Shown here piece by piece: positions 1,307 through 17,534 of a DNA stretch of 40,233 bases. Source of the stretch: a virus (lineage: Duplodnaviria > Heunggongvirae > Uroviricota > Caudoviricetes); IMG/VR virus record IMGVR_UViG_2802429237_000003, positions 1 through 40,233 of that record. One strand, given 5' to 3'. The position numbers were made by a program, and so were the translations under genes. Positions within the stretch are counted from its first letter, which is position 1, and each line of letters opens with the position of its first letter. The notes beneath the pieces are model-generated. The model was given only the letters and a program-made list of their open reading frames with translations, was not told where the DNA came from and searched no databases.

Positions 1307-3763
1307 TTAAAAATCAACCGGATTCGGGATCAGTTTTTGCCAGATTGCTGAAACGTATTTTGCCTGGTGACGGGCGTCATCAAGTGCATTATGGCGCTCA
1401 CCTTCGAATGGAATATCCATTCTGGCATCAAAGTCTATGGCTTTTCCTAACTCAACGATTGTGCGTACATCTCGATCGTTGTAGTAACGCCACGGGCAGG
1501 GGATCCCCTGCCGTTCGTATGAACGGCGCAAAATCGTGTTGTCGAAGTTGGCTCCATTTCCCCAGACCTGAACAAAAAATTCACCGGAGTTTTCGTCGAT
1601 AAATTCCCGCAATTGTAACAGTGCATCATCTAACGGGATTTCATCGGTCATAATGGCAGATTGCGCTTCGCGTGATTGCTTAAGCCACCATTTAATGGTG
1701 TCCCGATCAATGACTCCGCCAGCAGTTTCCAGATCGATAGTCTTACTAAATTCCGGTCCCATATCTCCGGTTTGCGGATCGAAAAAAATTGCACCTATTG
1801 AGATGATCGGGGCATCAGGATTTTTTCCCATGGTTTCAAGGTCGATCATTAGATGGTCACACGTCCTGCTGGTGGATGTGATTTCGTGATGACCGTTCAC
1901 CTTAATTGAGTGATCTGCCGCCTCGCCAGTTTCATTATCGCTGGCGTGGTCCTGAGCGCTGCCAGCATTCTCCTTGTGTGGATGTTCAGCGCCTTCCATT
2001 TCCTCCGGATCATTTTCCTGAACTTCAACCTGATTCTCTTCATCGAATGTTTCCTGGTATGTTGCGTCGCCCATCACCGCGCCACAATCAGGGCAGTTGC
2101 CGTCACCGCTCTGACCGCAGGCGGTGCAGACTTTTTCCACTTCCTGTTGCGCCACTGGTTCAGGCTGTTTCGTTTCTGGCTCGTTTTGTAACGCATTTGG
2201 GCTGTTTTGTTCCGCTTTCTGGTCGTTCTGTTCCGATTCTTGCTGGTTCTGGTTTACAGAATCGCGGGTTTCAATTCCCTTCACCCATTTCGGATCATTC
2301 GGGTCGCTAATCCCTGCAACAAATTCTCCGCGAGAGGCAGCAAGCAGTTCAGCGGCGTCAGGCTGGTTGATATTGGCTGCCTGCATAATTTTGTTTACTT
2401 CGTCAGCGGTAACTTTTACCTGATTAACCGGATCTATCTGTGCCTGAGTATCCAGCGATTGCGTGTCCTGGCGATGTTCAGTTGTATCCGGCTCCATTGC
2501 TTCAGTCGTTGCCTGTTCATCTGCCATTGCGTCAGACGGTTGTGATTTTTCCTCATTATTTTTTTCTTCTTCTGTTTCGCGTTCAGCAGCCAGTTCGCGG
2601 TTAACTTCTTCCAGGATATCTTTTTCCGGTGTATGTCGTGCAGCAGTGAGAGTTTCCTCGGTAGGGTTCTCGTGATCAGTCTCCGTTAAGTGGGCGTTGA
2701 TATACTCCTGAAGGCGTCCCGGGTAGAGATAAAGTTCAGGGTGAGCACTTCGGATAAGTGCAAAAATAGCGGCACGGGAATAATCCAGAACACCCGGGGT
2801 TGCGCGAAGTGCTGCGGACCATTCTTTGAACGGACTTTCTTTCTTCCGGACGATTTCTTTTGCGCGACGATAAACGCTGCCCGGGATTTCATAAATATTA
2901 AAATCCATCGGAAGTGTGGCCGCTGCAATCTCCACATCCAGCGTATCGAAGGTGTGTACTAAATTCGGATTGCGATCGGTTTTGTTCCCTCCACCGGCAT
3001 TAGCACCGGAAGCCGTGCGGGTGATGCGTGAAACACGATTTCCTTTCATCCACTCTTTTGTCAGCAGACCGCGATCGGTGTAGTCAGCGCCCAGGTATGC
3101 TTCGAAAAAAGCAGTCATCAGTCCCAGGTCTGAATTACCAGGATTAGGGAAAACTTTGTCCGTGTCACGAACCAGTTTGTGGAGATCGCGAATTTCAAGC
3201 GGTTCGAGTTGCGCTGCTTTATTTGAGATGGCCAGCGCGGTAACGGCGGGAAGTTTTTCATCCTGTGCGTTATGTAATGCGCGCAGTTCGCCCCGCGAAA
3301 CGTGTGTGATCGGTTTTTCGCTGCCGTGCTGCGCCAGCCATCGAACAGGCAGAATCTGACCTGAAACCGGCAGGAGCATGTTCTCCTCAATCTCAGTCAT
3401 GTCTTCGCCGTTGACGTTGGTATTGTCAGTGCTGGCTGGTTTGTCCTGAACAGAGGGCGAGGGCGCGATAAGTACCATTGTGATACCATCTTCCCCGCCT
3501 TTTTCGTATCGGTTGCAGAATTCGGTATCAAACACGCCTTCCGGAGGAAGGTCATTCACAACGGGTAAATGGACGCGAACAGGTTTTTTAAAATCCTCTT
3601 CGTCAAATCCGGCATCGTCCATTGCGACAACACCGCGTGATATTGCAACCGATAATTTTTTTGCTGTGCGCCAGTAAAAACCGCCTTTAATCCCAAGACG
3701 TTTTCTGACTTTGTCATTTTTGGCTTCGTAATATAGTGCAATTTCTTCTTTATCAGCGCTCAT
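1307..3763 (-). CDS. large putative exonuclease (818 aa): N-terminal domain of unknown function, acidic linker with CxxC..CxxC zinc ribbon, C-terminal DnaQ-like DEDDh 3'-5' exonuclease domain
   Basis: C-terminal region has DLETMG ... WGNGANFDNTIL ... HNALDDA motifs matching the Exo I/II/III motifs of DEDDh exonucleases; SD GAGG 8 nt upstream of ATG at 3763. Confidence 0.75.
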   Translation of the reverse strand: MSADKEEIALYYEAKNDKVRKRLGIKGGFYWRTAKKLSVAISRGVVAMDDAGFDEEDFKKPVRVHLPVVNDLPPEGVFDTEFCNRYEKGGEDGITMVLIAPSPSVQDKPASTDNTNVNGEDMTEIEENMLLPVSGQILPVRWLAQHGSEKPITHVSRGELRALHNAQDEKLPAVTALAISNKAAQLEPLEIRDLHKLVRDTDKVFPNPGNSDLGLMTAFFEAYLGADYTDRGLLTKEWMKGNRVSRITRTASGANAGGGNKTDRNPNLVHTFDTLDVEIAAATLPMDFNIYEIPGSVYRRAKEIVRKKESPFKEWSAALRATPGVLDYSRAAIFALIRSAHPELYLYPGRLQEYINAHLTETDHENPTEETLTAARHTPEKDILEEVNRELAAERETEEEKNNEEKSQPSDAMADEQATTEAMEPDTTEHRQDTQSLDTQAQIDPVNQVKVTADEVNKIMQAANINQPDAAELLAASRGEFVAGISDPNDPKWVKGIETRDSVNQNQQESEQNDQKAEQNSPNALQNEPETKQPEPVAQQEVEKVCTACGQSGDGNCPDCGAVMGDATYQETFDEENQVEVQENDPEEMEGAEHPHKENAGSAQDHASDNETGEAADHSIKVNGHHEITSTSRTCDHLMIDLETMGKNPDAPIISIGAIFFDPQTGDMGPEFSKTIDLETAGGVIDRDTIKWWLKQSREAQSAIMTDEIPLDDALLQLREFIDENSGEFFVQVWGNGANFDNTILRRSYERQGIPCPWRYYNDRDVRTIVELGKAIDFDARMDIPFEGERHNALDDARHQAKYVSAIWQKLIPNPVDF

Positions 3764-3853
3764 TGATAAACCTCATAACCATTTTTAGGGTGAACAAGTC
3801 CCTGCCATTGCTGGCATATAAAAATGAAACCGGATATTTATTACGGTGCTGGT

Positions 3854-4045
3854 TTAAAGCCCTGCCGGGACTTCGTTATTATCCATGCGAATAACTTTAT
3901 CGACCGGATAACAGTTACCTGGAATTTTCTGTTCCGCTGCGGCAGCCATGCATTCTTTCATTGAACCATATATACCAGTAACCACATCAACCGGTTCGCC
4001 TGTATTAAGAAAAACAGTCAGGGTGAGAGCAACAGCAGTATTCAT
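3854..4045 (-). CDS. ydfD: YdfD-like small membrane protein (63 aa)
   Basis: Internal ATG of the track ORF 3854..4099 gives 63 aa starting MNTAVALTLTVFL (hydrophobic N-terminus); the ATG overlaps the dicB stop (ATGA); position and size match ydfD of the E. coli Qin dicB operon as I recall it. Confidence 0.55.
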   Translation of the reverse strand: MNTAVALTLTVFLNTGEPVDVVTGIYGSMKECMAAAAEQKIPGNCYPVDKVIRMDNNEVPAGL

Positions 4046-4230
4046 TGCCAGTCTCCTTTTGGCATCAGACGTAAACGAGCCAGCATTGAAACAATGCATA
4101 TTTGATTTAATAGCTCCCGTTCGTGTTTTCTCTTATTAATCGCATCTTCAGTAAATACAGGGTTACTGATTCTGACACCAATTTCAAAACAACCTTCAGA
4201 CGTATTGACGTTTGGTAATAACGTTTCCAT
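4042..4230 (-). CDS. dicB: cell division inhibitor DicB homologue (62 aa)
   Basis: Internal ATG of ORF 4042..4326 gives 62 aa METLLPNVNTSEGCFEIGV...CIVSMLARLRLMPKGDWQ, near-identical in my recollection to E. coli DicB; SD GAGGA 8 nt upstream; preceded on the same strand by a DicF-like terminator hairpin. Confidence 0.78.
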   Translation of the reverse strand: METLLPNVNTSEGCFEIGVRISNPVFTEDAINKRKHERELLNQICIVSMLARLRLMPKGDWQ

Positions 4231-4423
4231 TATCGCGTCCTCAACAATGAATTTTGTGATACGGTGCCTGGTGCCTCCAGGTGACGTTAACCAGTTAACA
4301 ATTAACGCCGGATACAGAGAACCCACCCATAAGAACCAATACGGAAGTCAACTGGCCTTTTTAACTGTTCCGCGTGCGCTGAGCCGCATTCACCGCATCA
4401 CAAAATTCACTTTAAAAAGGGCG

Positions 4424-4476
4424 GGTATCACAAGGGAACAAAGAACGGATACCCGCCAAAAGGTAATCAACATGGG
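4424..4476 (-). ncRNA. dicF: DicF-like small RNA (approximate ends)
   Basis: Minus strand reads ...TTTTGGCGGGTATCCGTTCTTTGTTCCCTTGTGATACCCGCCCTTTTT followed by AAAGTGAATTTTGTGATG..GGTGAATGCGGCT.AGCGCACGCGG, matching the 3' terminator and downstream leader of E. coli dicF-dicB as I recall them; 10-bp stem GGCGGGTATC/GATACCCGCC plus T-run; immediately upstream of dicB. Confidence 0.5.
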
Positions 4477-4820
4477 TTGTTGCAGCGGGGGTGTCACTCA
4501 GGCGTATGGTCAACCTGACAACCCGGTGTTATCTCGAGGAAAGGATAGCCTCGCCATACTTACCGCCGCGCCATTTCGCGGAGTGCTACAACCGGAAGCG
4601 CACGGTCGAATTAAATTTAACGACACCGTACAGTGAGACGAACTTCGCCGTGCGCTTTCGTGTTGTGTGCCTGCTTTTAACCACGTCAGGCGAGGTGGTT
4701 CCTGTTATTCCCCAACAACAAGAAATTTGTATAATCCGGATATCCCCAACAACGAGAAGAGTATGTAACGTGATAGTTGAGTTCTCAGCAGCAATGTAGG
4801 CAATCAAAGAAACTGCGGTA

Positions 4821-5225
4821 ATGGCAAAGGGTATTCTGAATGCCAAAACTCAAACTGAGATAAATTCCGCTGTCAGCGATATGCTTTCAAAACTTACGTC
4901 TGTTCAGTTTGAATGCGTATCGCTCATTGAGATGGTGCGCTCTTATCAGGAAGAAGCCGCATCTCTCAAAGCAAAAATTGCAGAGATAGAAGACTTTCAG
5001 CAACAGGCGGAAGGTTACAAACTTAACAAGCTTGATTCTGGAACTCTTGTGTATTCCAAGAAGCAATTTATAGGCGATACTGAGATAACAGTGCATCTTT
5101 GCCCACAATGTTTTGGAAAAAAGGTAATATCTGTACTGCAGCCAATGGAAATAATGCGCCTTGATGCTCATTTTCGTACTTTTTGCCCCGCCTGTAATAA
5201 TAAGTTCTGGATGAACTCAAGATAA
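4821..5225 (+). CDS. hypothetical protein with N-terminal coiled-coil-like region and C-terminal CPQC...CPAC zinc ribbon (134 aa); convergent insert in the leftward early operon
   Basis: Clean 134-aa ORF on the strand opposite to all neighbours; visibly AT-rich; protein-like composition while the antisense ORF 4887..5171 is low-complexity; weak SD. Confidence 0.45.
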   Translation: MAKGILNAKTQTEINSAVSDMLSKLTSVQFECVSLIEMVRSYQEEAASLKAKIAEIEDFQQQAEGYKLNKLDSGTLVYSKKQFIGDTEITVHLCPQCFGKKVISVLQPMEIMRLDAHFRTFCPACNNKFWMNSR

Positions 5226-5360
5226 TTAACTGTTTAAATAAGTTGGGACTATCCAGATTTTTAAAGAACGTGCCGGATGCTCACCCGTGTCCGGCGCACG
5301 CACTCCACCTGCCTCGTGGAGAACTCCTTAATTATCAACCTTAGTCTCGTTGGTTAACTA

Positions 5361-5579
5361 TTAACGCGGGTATGAAATCATTCTGGCAATGCTTAATGCC
5401 GCTGCTTTTTCCAGATTGGTGATATCCTGCTCCAGAGCGGACAGATTTTCAGCTTGCTTAGCCCTGGCTTCATTGGCCCATTTCAGGTCCTGCGCTGCCT
5501 TAATTTTCTGGCGCATCCACTCATAAAGTTCATCATCGGTATAGTCTGGCGCGATGATGACGGGTTCTCGTTTCTGCAT
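5361..5579 (-). CDS. ydfC: YdfC-like small protein (72 aa)
   Basis: 72-aa ORF with SD GAGG upstream; follows the ydfB-like ORF on the same strand; order and sizes (51/42/72 aa) match ydfA-ydfB-ydfC of Qin. Confidence 0.55.
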   Translation of the reverse strand: MQKREPVIIAPDYTDDELYEWMRQKIKAAQDLKWANEARAKQAENLSALEQDITNLEKAAALSIARMISYPR

Positions 5580-5608
5580 ACTGATTCCTCGCGGTGCTGT
5601 TTCGCTTA

Positions 5609-5737
5609 TCAGCCGTTAGATTTTGCCGAACTGGAAAGCGCCTGTTTAAACTCACTGAAGCTGAGAGCTTCTTCGCCTTCGGCAAGGCCTTCGAAGTATT
5701 CTTCGTAAGCCTTTTCCATGATTGCGTCGAAATCCAT
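5609..5737 (-). CDS. ydfB: YdfB-like small acidic protein (42 aa; below ORF-track cutoff)
   Basis: Hand-translated minus-strand ORF MDFDAIMEKAYEEYFEGLAEGEEALSFSEFKQALSSSAKSNG; its ATG lies 2 nt after the upstream stop (tight coupling); the two overlapping track ORFs 5533..5742(-) and 5594..5791(+) look non-protein-like. Confidence 0.5.
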   Translation of the reverse strand: MDFDAIMEKAYEEYFEGLAEGEEALSFSEFKQALSSSAKSNG

Positions 5738-5738
5738 A

Positions 5739-5894
5739 TCACTCACCTGAGTTTCTTTTCAGCCAGCGACGCGCGCCAGCTTCGGTTTTAAACGTTTTGC
5801 TTTTGGTATACGTCATCGCGGTGAACGTGCCGTCCTGGTTTGGAAACACGCCGTACACCAGAGATTCGTTGTTACCAAGATCGATAGTATCCAT
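5739..5894 (-). CDS. ydfA: YdfA-like small protein (51 aa)
   Basis: Internal ATG of ORF 5739..5972 with SD GAGGT gives 51 aa MDTIDLGNNESLVYGVFPNQDGTFTAMTYTKSKTFKTEAGARRWLKRNSGE, matching the size and, as I recall, the sequence of E. coli YdfA. Confidence 0.6.
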   Translation of the reverse strand: MDTIDLGNNESLVYGVFPNQDGTFTAMTYTKSKTFKTEAGARRWLKRNSGE

Positions 5895-6100
5895 GCTGAC
5901 CTCATTTCCCCTTAACGCCGGGGTAGCGGAACAAAAACCTGCTGCATAGTTAAAGTTGAACCCTGCCGTCATGTTCTTACGCCTCGGGCTGGCTACTTAA
6001 CCCCTGACCACTGCCTGGTAACTCGAAGTATTGCCCTGCATTTTGTGGGGTGGGGTGAGGGAATGAATTAAGTTTAGAAAAATGAACTTTTCAGGTCAAT

Positions 6101-6116
6101 GTTTTTTTATCAAAAC
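6101..6116 (-). promoter_or_regulatory. candidate operator (O_L-like) 16-mer GTTTTGATAAAAAAAC, read on minus strand
   Basis: Third copy of the GTTTTGAT-N4-AAAC motif found twice in the cI-cro intergenic region; lies between the repressor gene and the ydfA-like operon, next to a TTGACC -35-like hexamer. Confidence 0.35.
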
Positions 6117-6183
6117 ATTTTGAGCAGGCAGCTGTTAAGCCATCACCACGATGGCATACAGTTAATCAAATAGATGAGGTTGG

Positions 6184-6822
6184 TTAAATATCTTGTTGAA
6201 TTTTAAAGCATACACCCAATATGCAAGATAGATCATCCAGCATAATTGAAGGGTAGCGAGGATTCGTGGGGACTAAAAGAATATCCGGCCCTTCTATCTC
6301 CAGTTTACGAATGACAGGTGTTGTGGTCCCTTTGGGTAAGGCAAGGACAATATTTCCTGGTTGTGCGGTTCGATCGGGATCAACAAAAACTGTTGATCCA
6401 TTTGGGATGGAAACTCCCCCACCAGATGTTGACATACTGTCACTCTCTAGAACAACTGCAAAGGTATTGGCCGGGATTTCTCCGACAAGCTGCACACAAG
6501 AGGTTATTGAGGAATTTTTCATATAATCACTCCAGCTTGCTGCCTGCTGAAGTGATAGTAGCGGAACCGTTTTTATCGGCGGTAAAGATAGATCAAGCGA
6601 ATCACCTGTATTTAACTCTCCTCCATTAAGAAGCCAATTTTCGTTTACTTTCAATATCTTTGCCAGTGAACTTATGTAACGCGAGGACGGCGCTCCTCCA
6701 CCGTTCATCCATTGACTTACGGAGCCTTTTGATGCGCCAGTGGCATTGACAAGGTCTTTGCCTTTCAGGTTTAGCGCATGCATACGTTGGGTTATGCGTT
6801 CAGATATTGTTTGCTTGCTCAT
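6184..6822 (-). CDS. CI-like prophage repressor: N-terminal HTH, C-terminal S24 LexA-like self-cleaving peptidase domain (212 aa)
   Basis: N-terminal HTH signature (GKDLVNATGASKGSVSQWMNG) and C-terminal S24-like region; divergent from the Cro-like gene with a ~90-bp operator-containing intergenic region. Confidence 0.85.
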   Translation of the reverse strand: MSKQTISERITQRMHALNLKGKDLVNATGASKGSVSQWMNGGGAPSSRYISSLAKILKVNENWLLNGGELNTGDSLDLSLPPIKTVPLLSLQQAASWSDYMKNSSITSCVQLVGEIPANTFAVVLESDSMSTSGGGVSIPNGSTVFVDPDRTAQPGNIVLALPKGTTTPVIRKLEIEGPDILLVPTNPRYPSIMLDDLSCILGVCFKIQQDI

Positions 6823-6823
6823 G

Positions 6824-6839
6824 TTTTGATTTTAAAACA
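6824..6839 (+). promoter_or_regulatory. candidate operator O_R site GTTTTGATTTTAAAAC
   Basis: Imperfect 16-mer with inverted GTTTT/AAAAC ends, directly abutting the repressor start codon; repeated 45 bp downstream. Confidence 0.4.
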
Positions 6840-6855: not shown

Positions 6856-6884
6856 TTGACTTTCTTTGGTTTTGATTATTAAAC
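6856..6884 (+). promoter_or_regulatory. candidate P_R promoter (-35 TTGACT at 6856-6861) overlapping second operator copy GTTTTGATTATTAAAC (6869-6884)
   Basis: TTGACT followed 15-17 bp later by an A/T-rich -10-like hexamer (TATTAA), ~30 bp upstream of the cro-like start; operator repeat overlaps the -10 region. Confidence 0.4.
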
Positions 6885-6913
6885 TTTTGGCGTTCAGTTT
6901 TATGGAGCGACTC

Positions 6914-17380: not shown

Positions 17381-17456
<76 letters not shown>

Positions 17457-17459
17457 TAT

Positions 17460-17534
<75 letters not shown>

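Follow-up and report, generated by a model that had tools for sequence, protein, structure and literature searches.

An unannotated RNA variant at the dicF position of a prophage dicB operon: one allele of a polymorphic DicF/KilS slot

Does a prophage that carries a dicB operon also carry DicF? This question is raised by IMG/VR virus record IMGVR_UViG_2802429237_000003, a stretch of 40,233 nucleotides (hereafter, the window) whose first-pass annotation described a complete dicB-operon homologue at 3854-5972 on the minus strand, with a diverged DicF between ydfC and dicB. DicF is among the oldest known bacterial small RNAs (sRNAs) and has been regarded as one conserved sequence; in the principal survey of where it occurs, the copies used were more than 99% identical (PMC5069750). 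The dicB operon as such is ordinary and already known, with operon-like sequence present in 4766 of 5426 complete Escherichia coli genomes. What is new is an unannotated RNA variant at this known locus, and with it the recognition of polymorphism at the dicF position, a slot occupied by DicF in one prophage and by KilS in another.

The variable core at the dicF position, here called the B1 allele, spans 4414-4478 on the minus strand and reads AACCCAUGUUGAUUACCUUUU-GGCGGGUAUC-CGUUCUUUGUUCCCUUGU-GAUACCCGCC-C-UUUUU. A single-stranded AACCCAUGUUGAUUACCUUUU segment is followed by a GC-rich, perfect 10-bp helix formed by GGCGGGUAUC (5′ arm, 4448-4457) and GAUACCCGCC (3′ arm, 4420-4429), which closes the 18-nucleotide, pyrimidine-rich loop CGUUCUUUGUUCCCUUGU (4430-4447); a single C then leads into the U5 tract (4414-4418). 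The hairpin folds with -18.6 kcal/mol (z = -4.5), a value equalled by none of 200 shuffled sequences, and together with the U5 tract it is a predicted intrinsic terminator, as is present at the 3′ end of DicF. The claim that the terminator had been kept is thus borne out by the GGCGG...CCGCC base and the U5 tail. In an alignment of the window with E. coli K-12 and E. coli FORC_082, the sequences flanking the core align with the flanks of dicF, while the core itself differs. The downstream flank is common to the Rac prophage KilS locus and to the Shiga toxin (Stx) phage POCJ13 as well. In K-12, dicF lies 340 nucleotides after ydfC and 175 nucleotides before dicB. The window element is likewise placed between these two genes, with an intrinsic terminator at its end and a conserved long stem directly after it.

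The label of a diverged DicF is therefore right about the place, a hairpin lying exactly at the dicF position between conserved flanks, but not about the family. At the gathering threshold (48 bits), the Rfam search of the whole window returned two tRNAs and no match to the DicF model RF00039. With the cut-off relaxed to E ≤ 10, this covariance model again gave no match, either on 3800-6200 (2.4 kb) or on 4395-4500 (106 nucleotides), while the positive controls scored 76.7 bits (K-12 DicF) and 72.5 bits (the FORC_082 copy). As no match was obtained at three sensitivities at which the controls do score, membership of the DicF family as defined by the Rfam model is ruled out.

The divergence also reaches the residues through which DicF acts. 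Among the partners of the DicF 5′ end is pykA. Genetic experiments showed that the 3′ region of DicF pairs with the ribosome-binding site of ftsZ and its 5′ end with xylR (Balasubramanian et al., PMC5069750). According to the alignment and the list of alleles, the window allele lacks the 5′ seed UUUCUGGUGACG and has AACCCAUGUUGAUUACCUUUU instead. The canonical precursor folds UGUUAUCA-AUUUUC-UGGUGACG into a small hairpin whose loop contains the annotated 5′ end of DicF and whose 3′ arm is the seed; in the window allele, this seed-forming 3′ arm is deleted. The ftsZ-pairing loop of DicF, beginning GUUUUACUCCG, is replaced by CGUUCUUUGUUCCCUUGU. The RNA had been said to differ from DicF in its central region. 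The core does differ, but the divergence is wider, the 5′ seed being lost as well. The accompanying suggestion that its target set may not be that of K-12 DicF agrees with these data: an RNA that differs from DicF in this way should have different targets. Because both mapped pairing modules are gone, DicF-like repression of ftsZ or xylR is not expected, and for the same reason division inhibition from this operon would rest on DicB.

A diverged yet functional DicF orthologue could in principle still inhibit division via ftsZ, and perhaps act on other DicF targets, by altered pairing. Its genomic position and terminator base are those of DicF, the 5′ half of the hairpin is DicF-like (GGCGG(G)TATC(C/A)GTT), the loop is as pyrimidine-rich as expected of a sequence directed against a ribosome-binding site, and a short GUUCC/GGAAC match occurs at positions +10..+20 of ftsZ. 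However, this match lies in the coding region and corresponds to the best local duplex of the window allele, at only -8.7 kcal/mol, whereas DicF reaches -22.7 kcal/mol at -28..-7, the published ribosome-binding-site position. After correction for accessibility, 27 of 40 shuffled targets were at least as good as ftsZ for the window allele, although this is a low-power control, in which true DicF itself beats only 33 of 40 shuffled targets. The argument on ftsZ draws on the comparison of raw duplexes and on the loss of the mapped residues; duplex prediction with the full-length sequences (RNAduplex) gave meaningless whole-molecule duplexes. Combined with the lack of a covariance-model match at any threshold and the loss of both the ftsZ-pairing residues and the 5′ seed, these values make a functional DicF orthologue quite unlikely.

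If the window RNA is not DicF, the slot itself should be compared between prophages. Flank-anchored gapped patterns were run against IMG/VR, species-representative genomes and sequenced phages; the candidate recombination junctions of the slot lie after GCAAC and at TTTGGCGG. Among prophages and phages of Escherichia/Shigella, at least six allele classes were found at the dicF position: canonical DicF; A2, which joins the DicF 5′ module to a GGCGGCAUCUG...CUGAUGUCCGCC hairpin and occurs in Escherichia albertii among others; C, the short allele GGCGGAAACGGAUAUCCGCC; B1, the class of the window, in which GGCGGGUAUC/GAUACCCGCC stems carry loops differing from contig to contig; B2, which combines the B1 5′ module with a GGCGGCAUCAG...CUGAUGUCCGCC hairpin; and the class of Stx phage POCJ13. 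In each class, a stable hairpin forms on a GGCGG/CCGCC base with a U tract after it. Upper stems are not the same from class to class, yet they remain complementary, and 5′ modules and hairpin modules are found in varied combinations. All non-canonical alleles score below the DicF gathering threshold.

B-type alleles (B1 and the related B2) were found in 70 IMG/VR contigs, and a 65-nucleotide query with the window core located B-type cores in 189 of the 5426 complete E. coli genomes (about 3.5%). The best of these genome matches is 95.5% identical to the window core and has a loop 2 nucleotides longer; the exact loop of the window was not found in the other B-type IMG/VR contigs. One strain with a B1 allele is E. 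coli O121 RM8352 (NZ_CP028110, 1076330-1076396). No RNA feature was annotated in the E. coli records among the matches listed (40 of the 189), and no description of the B1 or B2 alleles was found in the literature, a literal search of papers for the hairpin sequence giving one unrelated primer match only.

The second named occupant of the slot comes from the Rac prophage of K-12. Here, the annotated 3′ end of the noncoding RNA kilS (b4833) coincides with the last U of the U tract of the slot hairpin, GGCGGCAUCAG...CUGAUGUCCGCC, and is followed by the identical AAAGTGAATTTTGTGATGCGGTGAATGCGG leader. In the sequences used for comparison, kilS occupies 6406-6503 on the minus strand of the K-12 Rac region (L198) and dicF 3883-3935 of the K-12 Qin region (L002). 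The early-left order of Rac (racR, ydaG, the DUF1391 gene ydaF, sieB on the opposite strand, kilS, kilR, ydaE, racC, recE) is syntenic with the window. KilR, like DicB, acts on cell division: it is an inhibitor of FtsZ. The slot leader is found before either dicB or kilR; in phages POCJ13 and pPE4, the slot and its downstream leader precede a gene for a 73-residue 'Kil protein' with 90% identity to K-12 KilR. Judged from these alignments, DicF in Qin and KilS in Rac occupy one slot of homologous leaders upstream of dicB and kilR, respectively. KilS was predicted from RIL-seq (ligation and sequencing of interacting RNAs) on Hfq and verified by Northern blotting; it has yncL as a RIL-seq partner and possibly a promoter of its own (PMC8175672). 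The paper makes no mention of DicF (PMC8175672), and within limited search coverage no treatment of KilS and DicF as two alleles of a single locus was found in the literature. That a slot allele other than DicF can be a real sRNA is best supported, on present evidence, by KilS.

One phage of this group shows a further rearrangement. In vB_Apl-pPE4 (PP818812; L196, approximately 2500-2700), a B1-type core and the first 18 nucleotides of the downstream flank stand in tandem duplicate before the kilR-like gene. The record is labelled as an Actinobacillus phage, but the region consists of E. coli-lambdoid sequence encoding DicA, YdaT, Kil and exonuclease VIII.

How these alleles arose, and whether they function in trans, can be read in two ways. 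Tentatively, DicF, KilS, B1, B2, A2, C and the POCJ13-type allele may all represent one hypervariable sRNA cassette, set in a conserved structured leader before a gene for an FtsZ inhibitor (dicB or kilR). Recombination would then shuffle 5′ modules and terminator-hairpin modules and thereby give Hfq-dependent sRNAs with different seeds and different host regulons, B1 being a new sRNA that acts in trans on targets not including ftsZ, xylR or pykA. Alternatively, the B1 hairpin would be a mere intrinsic terminator or attenuator left by decay of DicF, one that has kept the limit on dicB in cis, has lost its function in trans and no longer yields a functional sRNA. The deleted 5′ seed and the replaced loop fit such a decay, as does the outcome of a search for cis targets complementary to the loop, in which only the locus itself matched across the 40-kb window. 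Decay can evidently occur, since two IMG/VR contigs (L158 and L171) carry a truncated allele, AACCCATGTTGATTACCTTTTCATTGCTGGCTGATGTCCGTCC, in which the hairpin has no 5′ arm and the terminator cannot form; the element can therefore be lost. On the other hand, KilS, which shares the slot and is not DicF either, is a stable RNA with chimeric partners in Hfq RIL-seq, and the U5 tail of B1 and its upstream U-run context are the same as in DicF. Furthermore, 69 of the 70 contigs have the same 21-nucleotide 5′ module of B type, although its first 12 nucleotides were fixed by the search pattern and only the next 9 were free to vary. Taken together, loss of all function in trans is possible but rather doubtful.

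Several observations nevertheless count against the interpretation favoured below. The contrast between scaffold and core is moderate: compared with canonical haplotypes, the window is 85% identical upstream of the core (163 nucleotides) and 80% identical downstream of it (168 nucleotides), and 60% identical in the core. In addition, the B-type core travels with a B-type downstream flank, the window being 94% identical to other B1 haplotypes in the core and 96% in the downstream flank. From these alignments, the pattern appears to be one of diverged leader lineages with additional shuffling of cores, and no clean cassette swap. The B1 loops vary by substitutions and U-run indels above invariant stems, which fits relaxed constraint as well as retargeting. 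Finally, termination, processing, Hfq binding and targets of the B1 allele are all inferred. Weighing both sides, we consider it probable that the window carries a dicB operon with a non-DicF terminator or attenuator that also yields a DicF/KilS-like RNA, whose targets would be different from those of DicF or none. That this RNA acts as a trans-acting regulator with new targets is, within this picture, a somewhat doubtful further step.

The sequence on both sides of the slot is conserved and largely untranslated. Downstream, a structured dicB 5′ leader (4231-4413, minus strand) is closed by a 21-bp stem with arms at 4391-4413 and 4246-4266. In the minimum-free-energy folds of both the window and K-12, this stem begins right after the terminator, encloses a structured spacer and ends beside the Shine-Dalgarno sequence of dicB. 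Consensus folding of 16 diverse dicB- and kil-type haplotypes (RNAalifold) kept 21 of 21 pairs, most of them invariant, with compensatory changes in 4 inner pairs. A 72-nucleotide form of DicF that depends on RNase III has been reported (PMC5069750; PMC9438474). The position of the 21-bp duplex fits this form, and the duplex looks like a putative RNase III substrate.

The spacer between the terminator and the downstream gene also resembles STnc100 (RF02076), with 33.8 bits in the window (E = 4.7e-5; 4253-4407 on the minus strand, model positions 21-154 of 206), 34.4 bits in K-12 Qin (L002, 3933-4142) and 28 bits in K-12 Rac (L198, 6223-6409), all below the 47-bit threshold. PasA-D and STnc100 were considered as identities of the hairpin and rejected: their loci in the literature are in late regions, the papers are silent on dicF and dicB, and the sub-threshold STnc100 match lies downstream of the hairpin.

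Upstream of the slot, a conserved untranslated leader (4479-4660, minus strand) aligns with K-12 Qin. Within it, the motif GTCGTTAAATTTAA at 4611-4624 on the minus strand matches TGTCTGTTAAATTTAAATG, located in Rac just upstream of the annotated 5′ end of KilS. Because KilS was reported with its own promoter and the motifs are alike, the window leader may hold an internal promoter for an RNA of about 195 nucleotides; no internal promoter was called there by the promoter scan.

Conservation of the leader and slot might instead be owed to a small protein encoded on the opposite strand, for which a 54-residue open reading frame (ORF; MGCCSGGVTQ..., 4472-4636, plus strand, inside 4205-4636 of the ORF map) would be the candidate. 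This ORF has a plausible ribosome-binding site, a Shine-Dalgarno-like AAAGG upstream that is created by the B-type 5′ module, and phage pPE4 has an overlapping antisense 'hypothetical protein' in its annotation. The frame of the window ORF, however, is cut to 9 residues in 25 of the 70 B-allele contigs and elsewhere ranges from 5 to 200 residues with changes of frame, and at this place K-12 lacks both the ATG and an open frame. In the 70 B-allele contigs, no conserved ORF was found in the upstream leader on either strand. As the frame is not conserved across these contigs, the antisense ORF was rejected as the cause of leader conservation, an explanation that we regard as highly improbable.

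Combining the terminator, the duplex and the known RNAs of the slot, a sequence of events can be proposed for the window. Upon derepression, transcription would start from a PL-like promoter upstream of ydfA. Most transcripts would stop at the hairpin terminator, which would limit expression of the toxic dicB-ydfD pair. Termination would leave a 3′-end fragment of the ydfABC transcript, from which a small hairpin RNA could be released, as for DicF, with KilS as the Rac allele of the slot. Read-through transcripts would fold the conserved 21-bp stem, a duplex of the type cut by RNase III in Qin, and then express DicB. Any activity of the B1 RNA in trans would be exerted through its loop or through the conserved 21-nucleotide 5′ tail, on targets other than those of DicF.

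The operon around the slot is the early-left operon of a lambdoid E. coli prophage, with ydfA-ydfB-ydfC, the RNA slot, dicB-ydfD and a RecE-like exonuclease gene. The ORF map and family matches agree with the complete dicB-operon homologue that had been described, all five genes lying on one strand in the order ydfA-ydfB-ydfC, untranslated region, dicB-ydfD. The reported product sizes of 51, 42, 72, 62 and 63 residues and their match to K-12 hold up equally well. The ydfA homologue (5739-5894, DUF1391, PF07151 with E = 9.5e-29) is 96% identical to YdfA of K-12 Qin, the ydfB homologue (5609-5737, phrog_2061, E = 1.3e-26) is 98% identical to YdfB, and the ydfC homologue (5361-5579, phrog_1744, E = 3e-39) is 97% identical to YdfC. 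A 77-residue ORF starting from 5972 is the same frame as ydfA in a merely longer reading. The cell-division inhibitor gene dicB (4042-4230, PF05358, E = 1e-37) encodes a protein with 90% identity to K-12 DicB that passes the curated family cut-offs, scoring 128 bits with PF05358 (cut-off 27) and 129.4 bits with NCBIfam NF049927 (cut-off 100). The ydfD homologue (3854-4045, DUF1482, PF07358, E = 2.9e-19) is the least similar, at 67%; YdfD of K-12 bears a lysis-protein annotation.

The operon was also described as lying downstream of an SOS-cleavable CI-type repressor. The repressor is indeed present, directly upstream, as a lambda-CI-like protein of 212 residues (6184-6822, minus strand) with an N-terminal HTH_3 domain (E = 1.7e-4) and a C-terminal Peptidase_S24 domain (E = 2.1e-13; both Pfam). 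It is of the CI/S24 type and not DicA. The protein aligns to lambda CI (3bdn) with E = 1.4e-9, and the catalytic Ser (ESDSM) and Lys (IRKL) of lambda CI are conserved. These features make SOS cleavage plausible from the sequence, but the scissile bond, Ala-Gly or Cys-Gly in self-cleaving repressors of the LexA/lambda-CI type, does not agree with it: Ala111-Gly112 of lambda CI aligns with Ala-Ala (VQAG/MFSP in CI versus LQQAA/SWSD here, the slash marking the aligned site), and Ala-Gly occurs nowhere in the 212 residues, which counts against the sequence of events proposed above.

A sigma-70-like, PL-like promoter (TTGACC-17-TAAACT, 6099..6071, minus strand) was called by the promoter scan and would serve the operon. 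Two operator-like sequences, at 6099-6118 and 6072-6091, overlap it, so that the whole feature covers 6071-6118. The sequence ATGTTTTTTTATCAAAACAT at 6099-6118 matches 6821-6839 and 6869-6887, both of which adjoin the repressor start. From these common operator-like palindromes and the PL-like promoter, we infer that the repressor controls the operon. Beyond about 6058, a point shortly downstream of the promoter, homology to other dicB operons is lost, as would be expected if another immunity region had been fused to a conserved early-left operon.

A feature that the first-pass annotation did not mention lies between ydfC and the RNA slot of the window, namely a 134-residue ORF on the opposite strand (4821-5225, plus strand) that is absent from K-12 Qin. 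It matches phrog_1244, a family of unknown function, with E = 5.8e-44. The N-terminal half is a coiled coil, and the C-terminal CPQC...CPAC (CxxC...CxxC) is zinc-ribbon-like. Against SLATT_5, weak sub-threshold matches only were obtained (Pfam, PADLOC, NCBIfam). SieB was considered as an identity, sieB occupying the same place in Rac, yet no similarity was found on comparison. In FORC_082, an annotated hypothetical gene occupies the corresponding position. The gene may be a moron expressed in the lysogen.

Downstream of ydfD, an 818-residue protein is encoded at 1307-3763 on the minus strand, with an N-terminal Exonuc_VIII (RecE-like) domain and a C-terminal Rv2179c-like 3′-5′ exoribonuclease domain (E = 3.2e-68). 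Judged by position alone, it may be the counterpart of the Qin ydfE pseudogene. As to its source, the window is an E. coli lambdoid prophage, apparently complete at 40 kb. Its first 20 kb are 99.2% identical to a prophage adjoining yccA in E. coli AH19B041, where the dicB segment studied here is present in another version. For 3800-6200, the top match among complete genomes is FORC_082, at only 91.7% identity. Two adjacent tRNA genes lie in the late region (17381-17453 and 17460-17531, both plus strand); in the AH19B041 prophage, which is nearly identical, they are annotated as tRNA-Thr and tRNA-Gly.

The polymorphism of the slot has practical consequences. The Rfam DicF model recognises the canonical allele only, and RNAs of non-canonical slot alleles are missed by annotation pipelines. 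The presence of a dicB operon is no proof of DicF-type control of ftsZ, xylR, pykA or pchA. For work on how the sRNAs of prophages gain targets in the host, the slot provides a natural set of seeds and loops exchanged within one constant scaffold. If the interpretation as a shuffled cassette holds, related prophages would carry sRNAs with different seeds and hence different host regulons.

Compared with known systems, the window resembles the K-12 Qin dicBF operon in gene order, gene sizes and proteins (67-98% identical), and in having a long untranslated region between ydfC and dicB, a terminator hairpin and a conserved long stem before dicB. In contrast, the repressor is DicA/DicC in Qin and of the CI/S24 type in the window, the window has the 134-residue gene on the opposite strand after ydfC, its RNA core is another allele, and it is an apparently complete 40-kb prophage whereas Qin is a remnant. 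With DicF itself (RF00039), the window RNA shares the position, the GGCGG...CCGCC terminator base, the U5 tail and the flanking sequence on both sides; it differs in the missing covariance-model match, in the absence of UUUCUGGUGACG, in the exchange of the GUUUUACUCCG... loop for CGUUCUUUGUUCCCUUGU, and in its stem, which is a perfect 10-bp helix where that of DicF is interrupted. STnc100 (RF02076), a family of prophage sRNAs related to PasD, is similar only through a partial structural match of the spacer between the terminator and dicB, and the described STnc100/PasD loci are found in late regions (Q, lysis, stx) and not in the early-left operon.

KilS and the window RNA share the slot, a GGCGG-based hairpin, an end in a U tract, the identical AAAGTGAATTTTGTGATGCGGTGAATGCGG leader and a downstream gene for an FtsZ inhibitor, within a syntenic early-left operon made up of a DUF1391 gene, an opposite-strand gene, the sRNA, the inhibitor and an exonuclease. 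They differ in the hairpin, which is GGCGGCAUCAG/CUGAUGUCCGCC with another loop in KilS and GGCGGGUAUC/GAUACCCGCC in the window, and in the upstream body and leader, KilS being 98 nucleotides long from GUGGGAGUGCGCC. KilS also reaches 39.1 bits on the DicF model, below the threshold, whereas the window allele gives no score, and the gene downstream is kilR in Rac and dicB in the window. The window RNA is thus better described as another allele of the polymorphic DicF/KilS slot.

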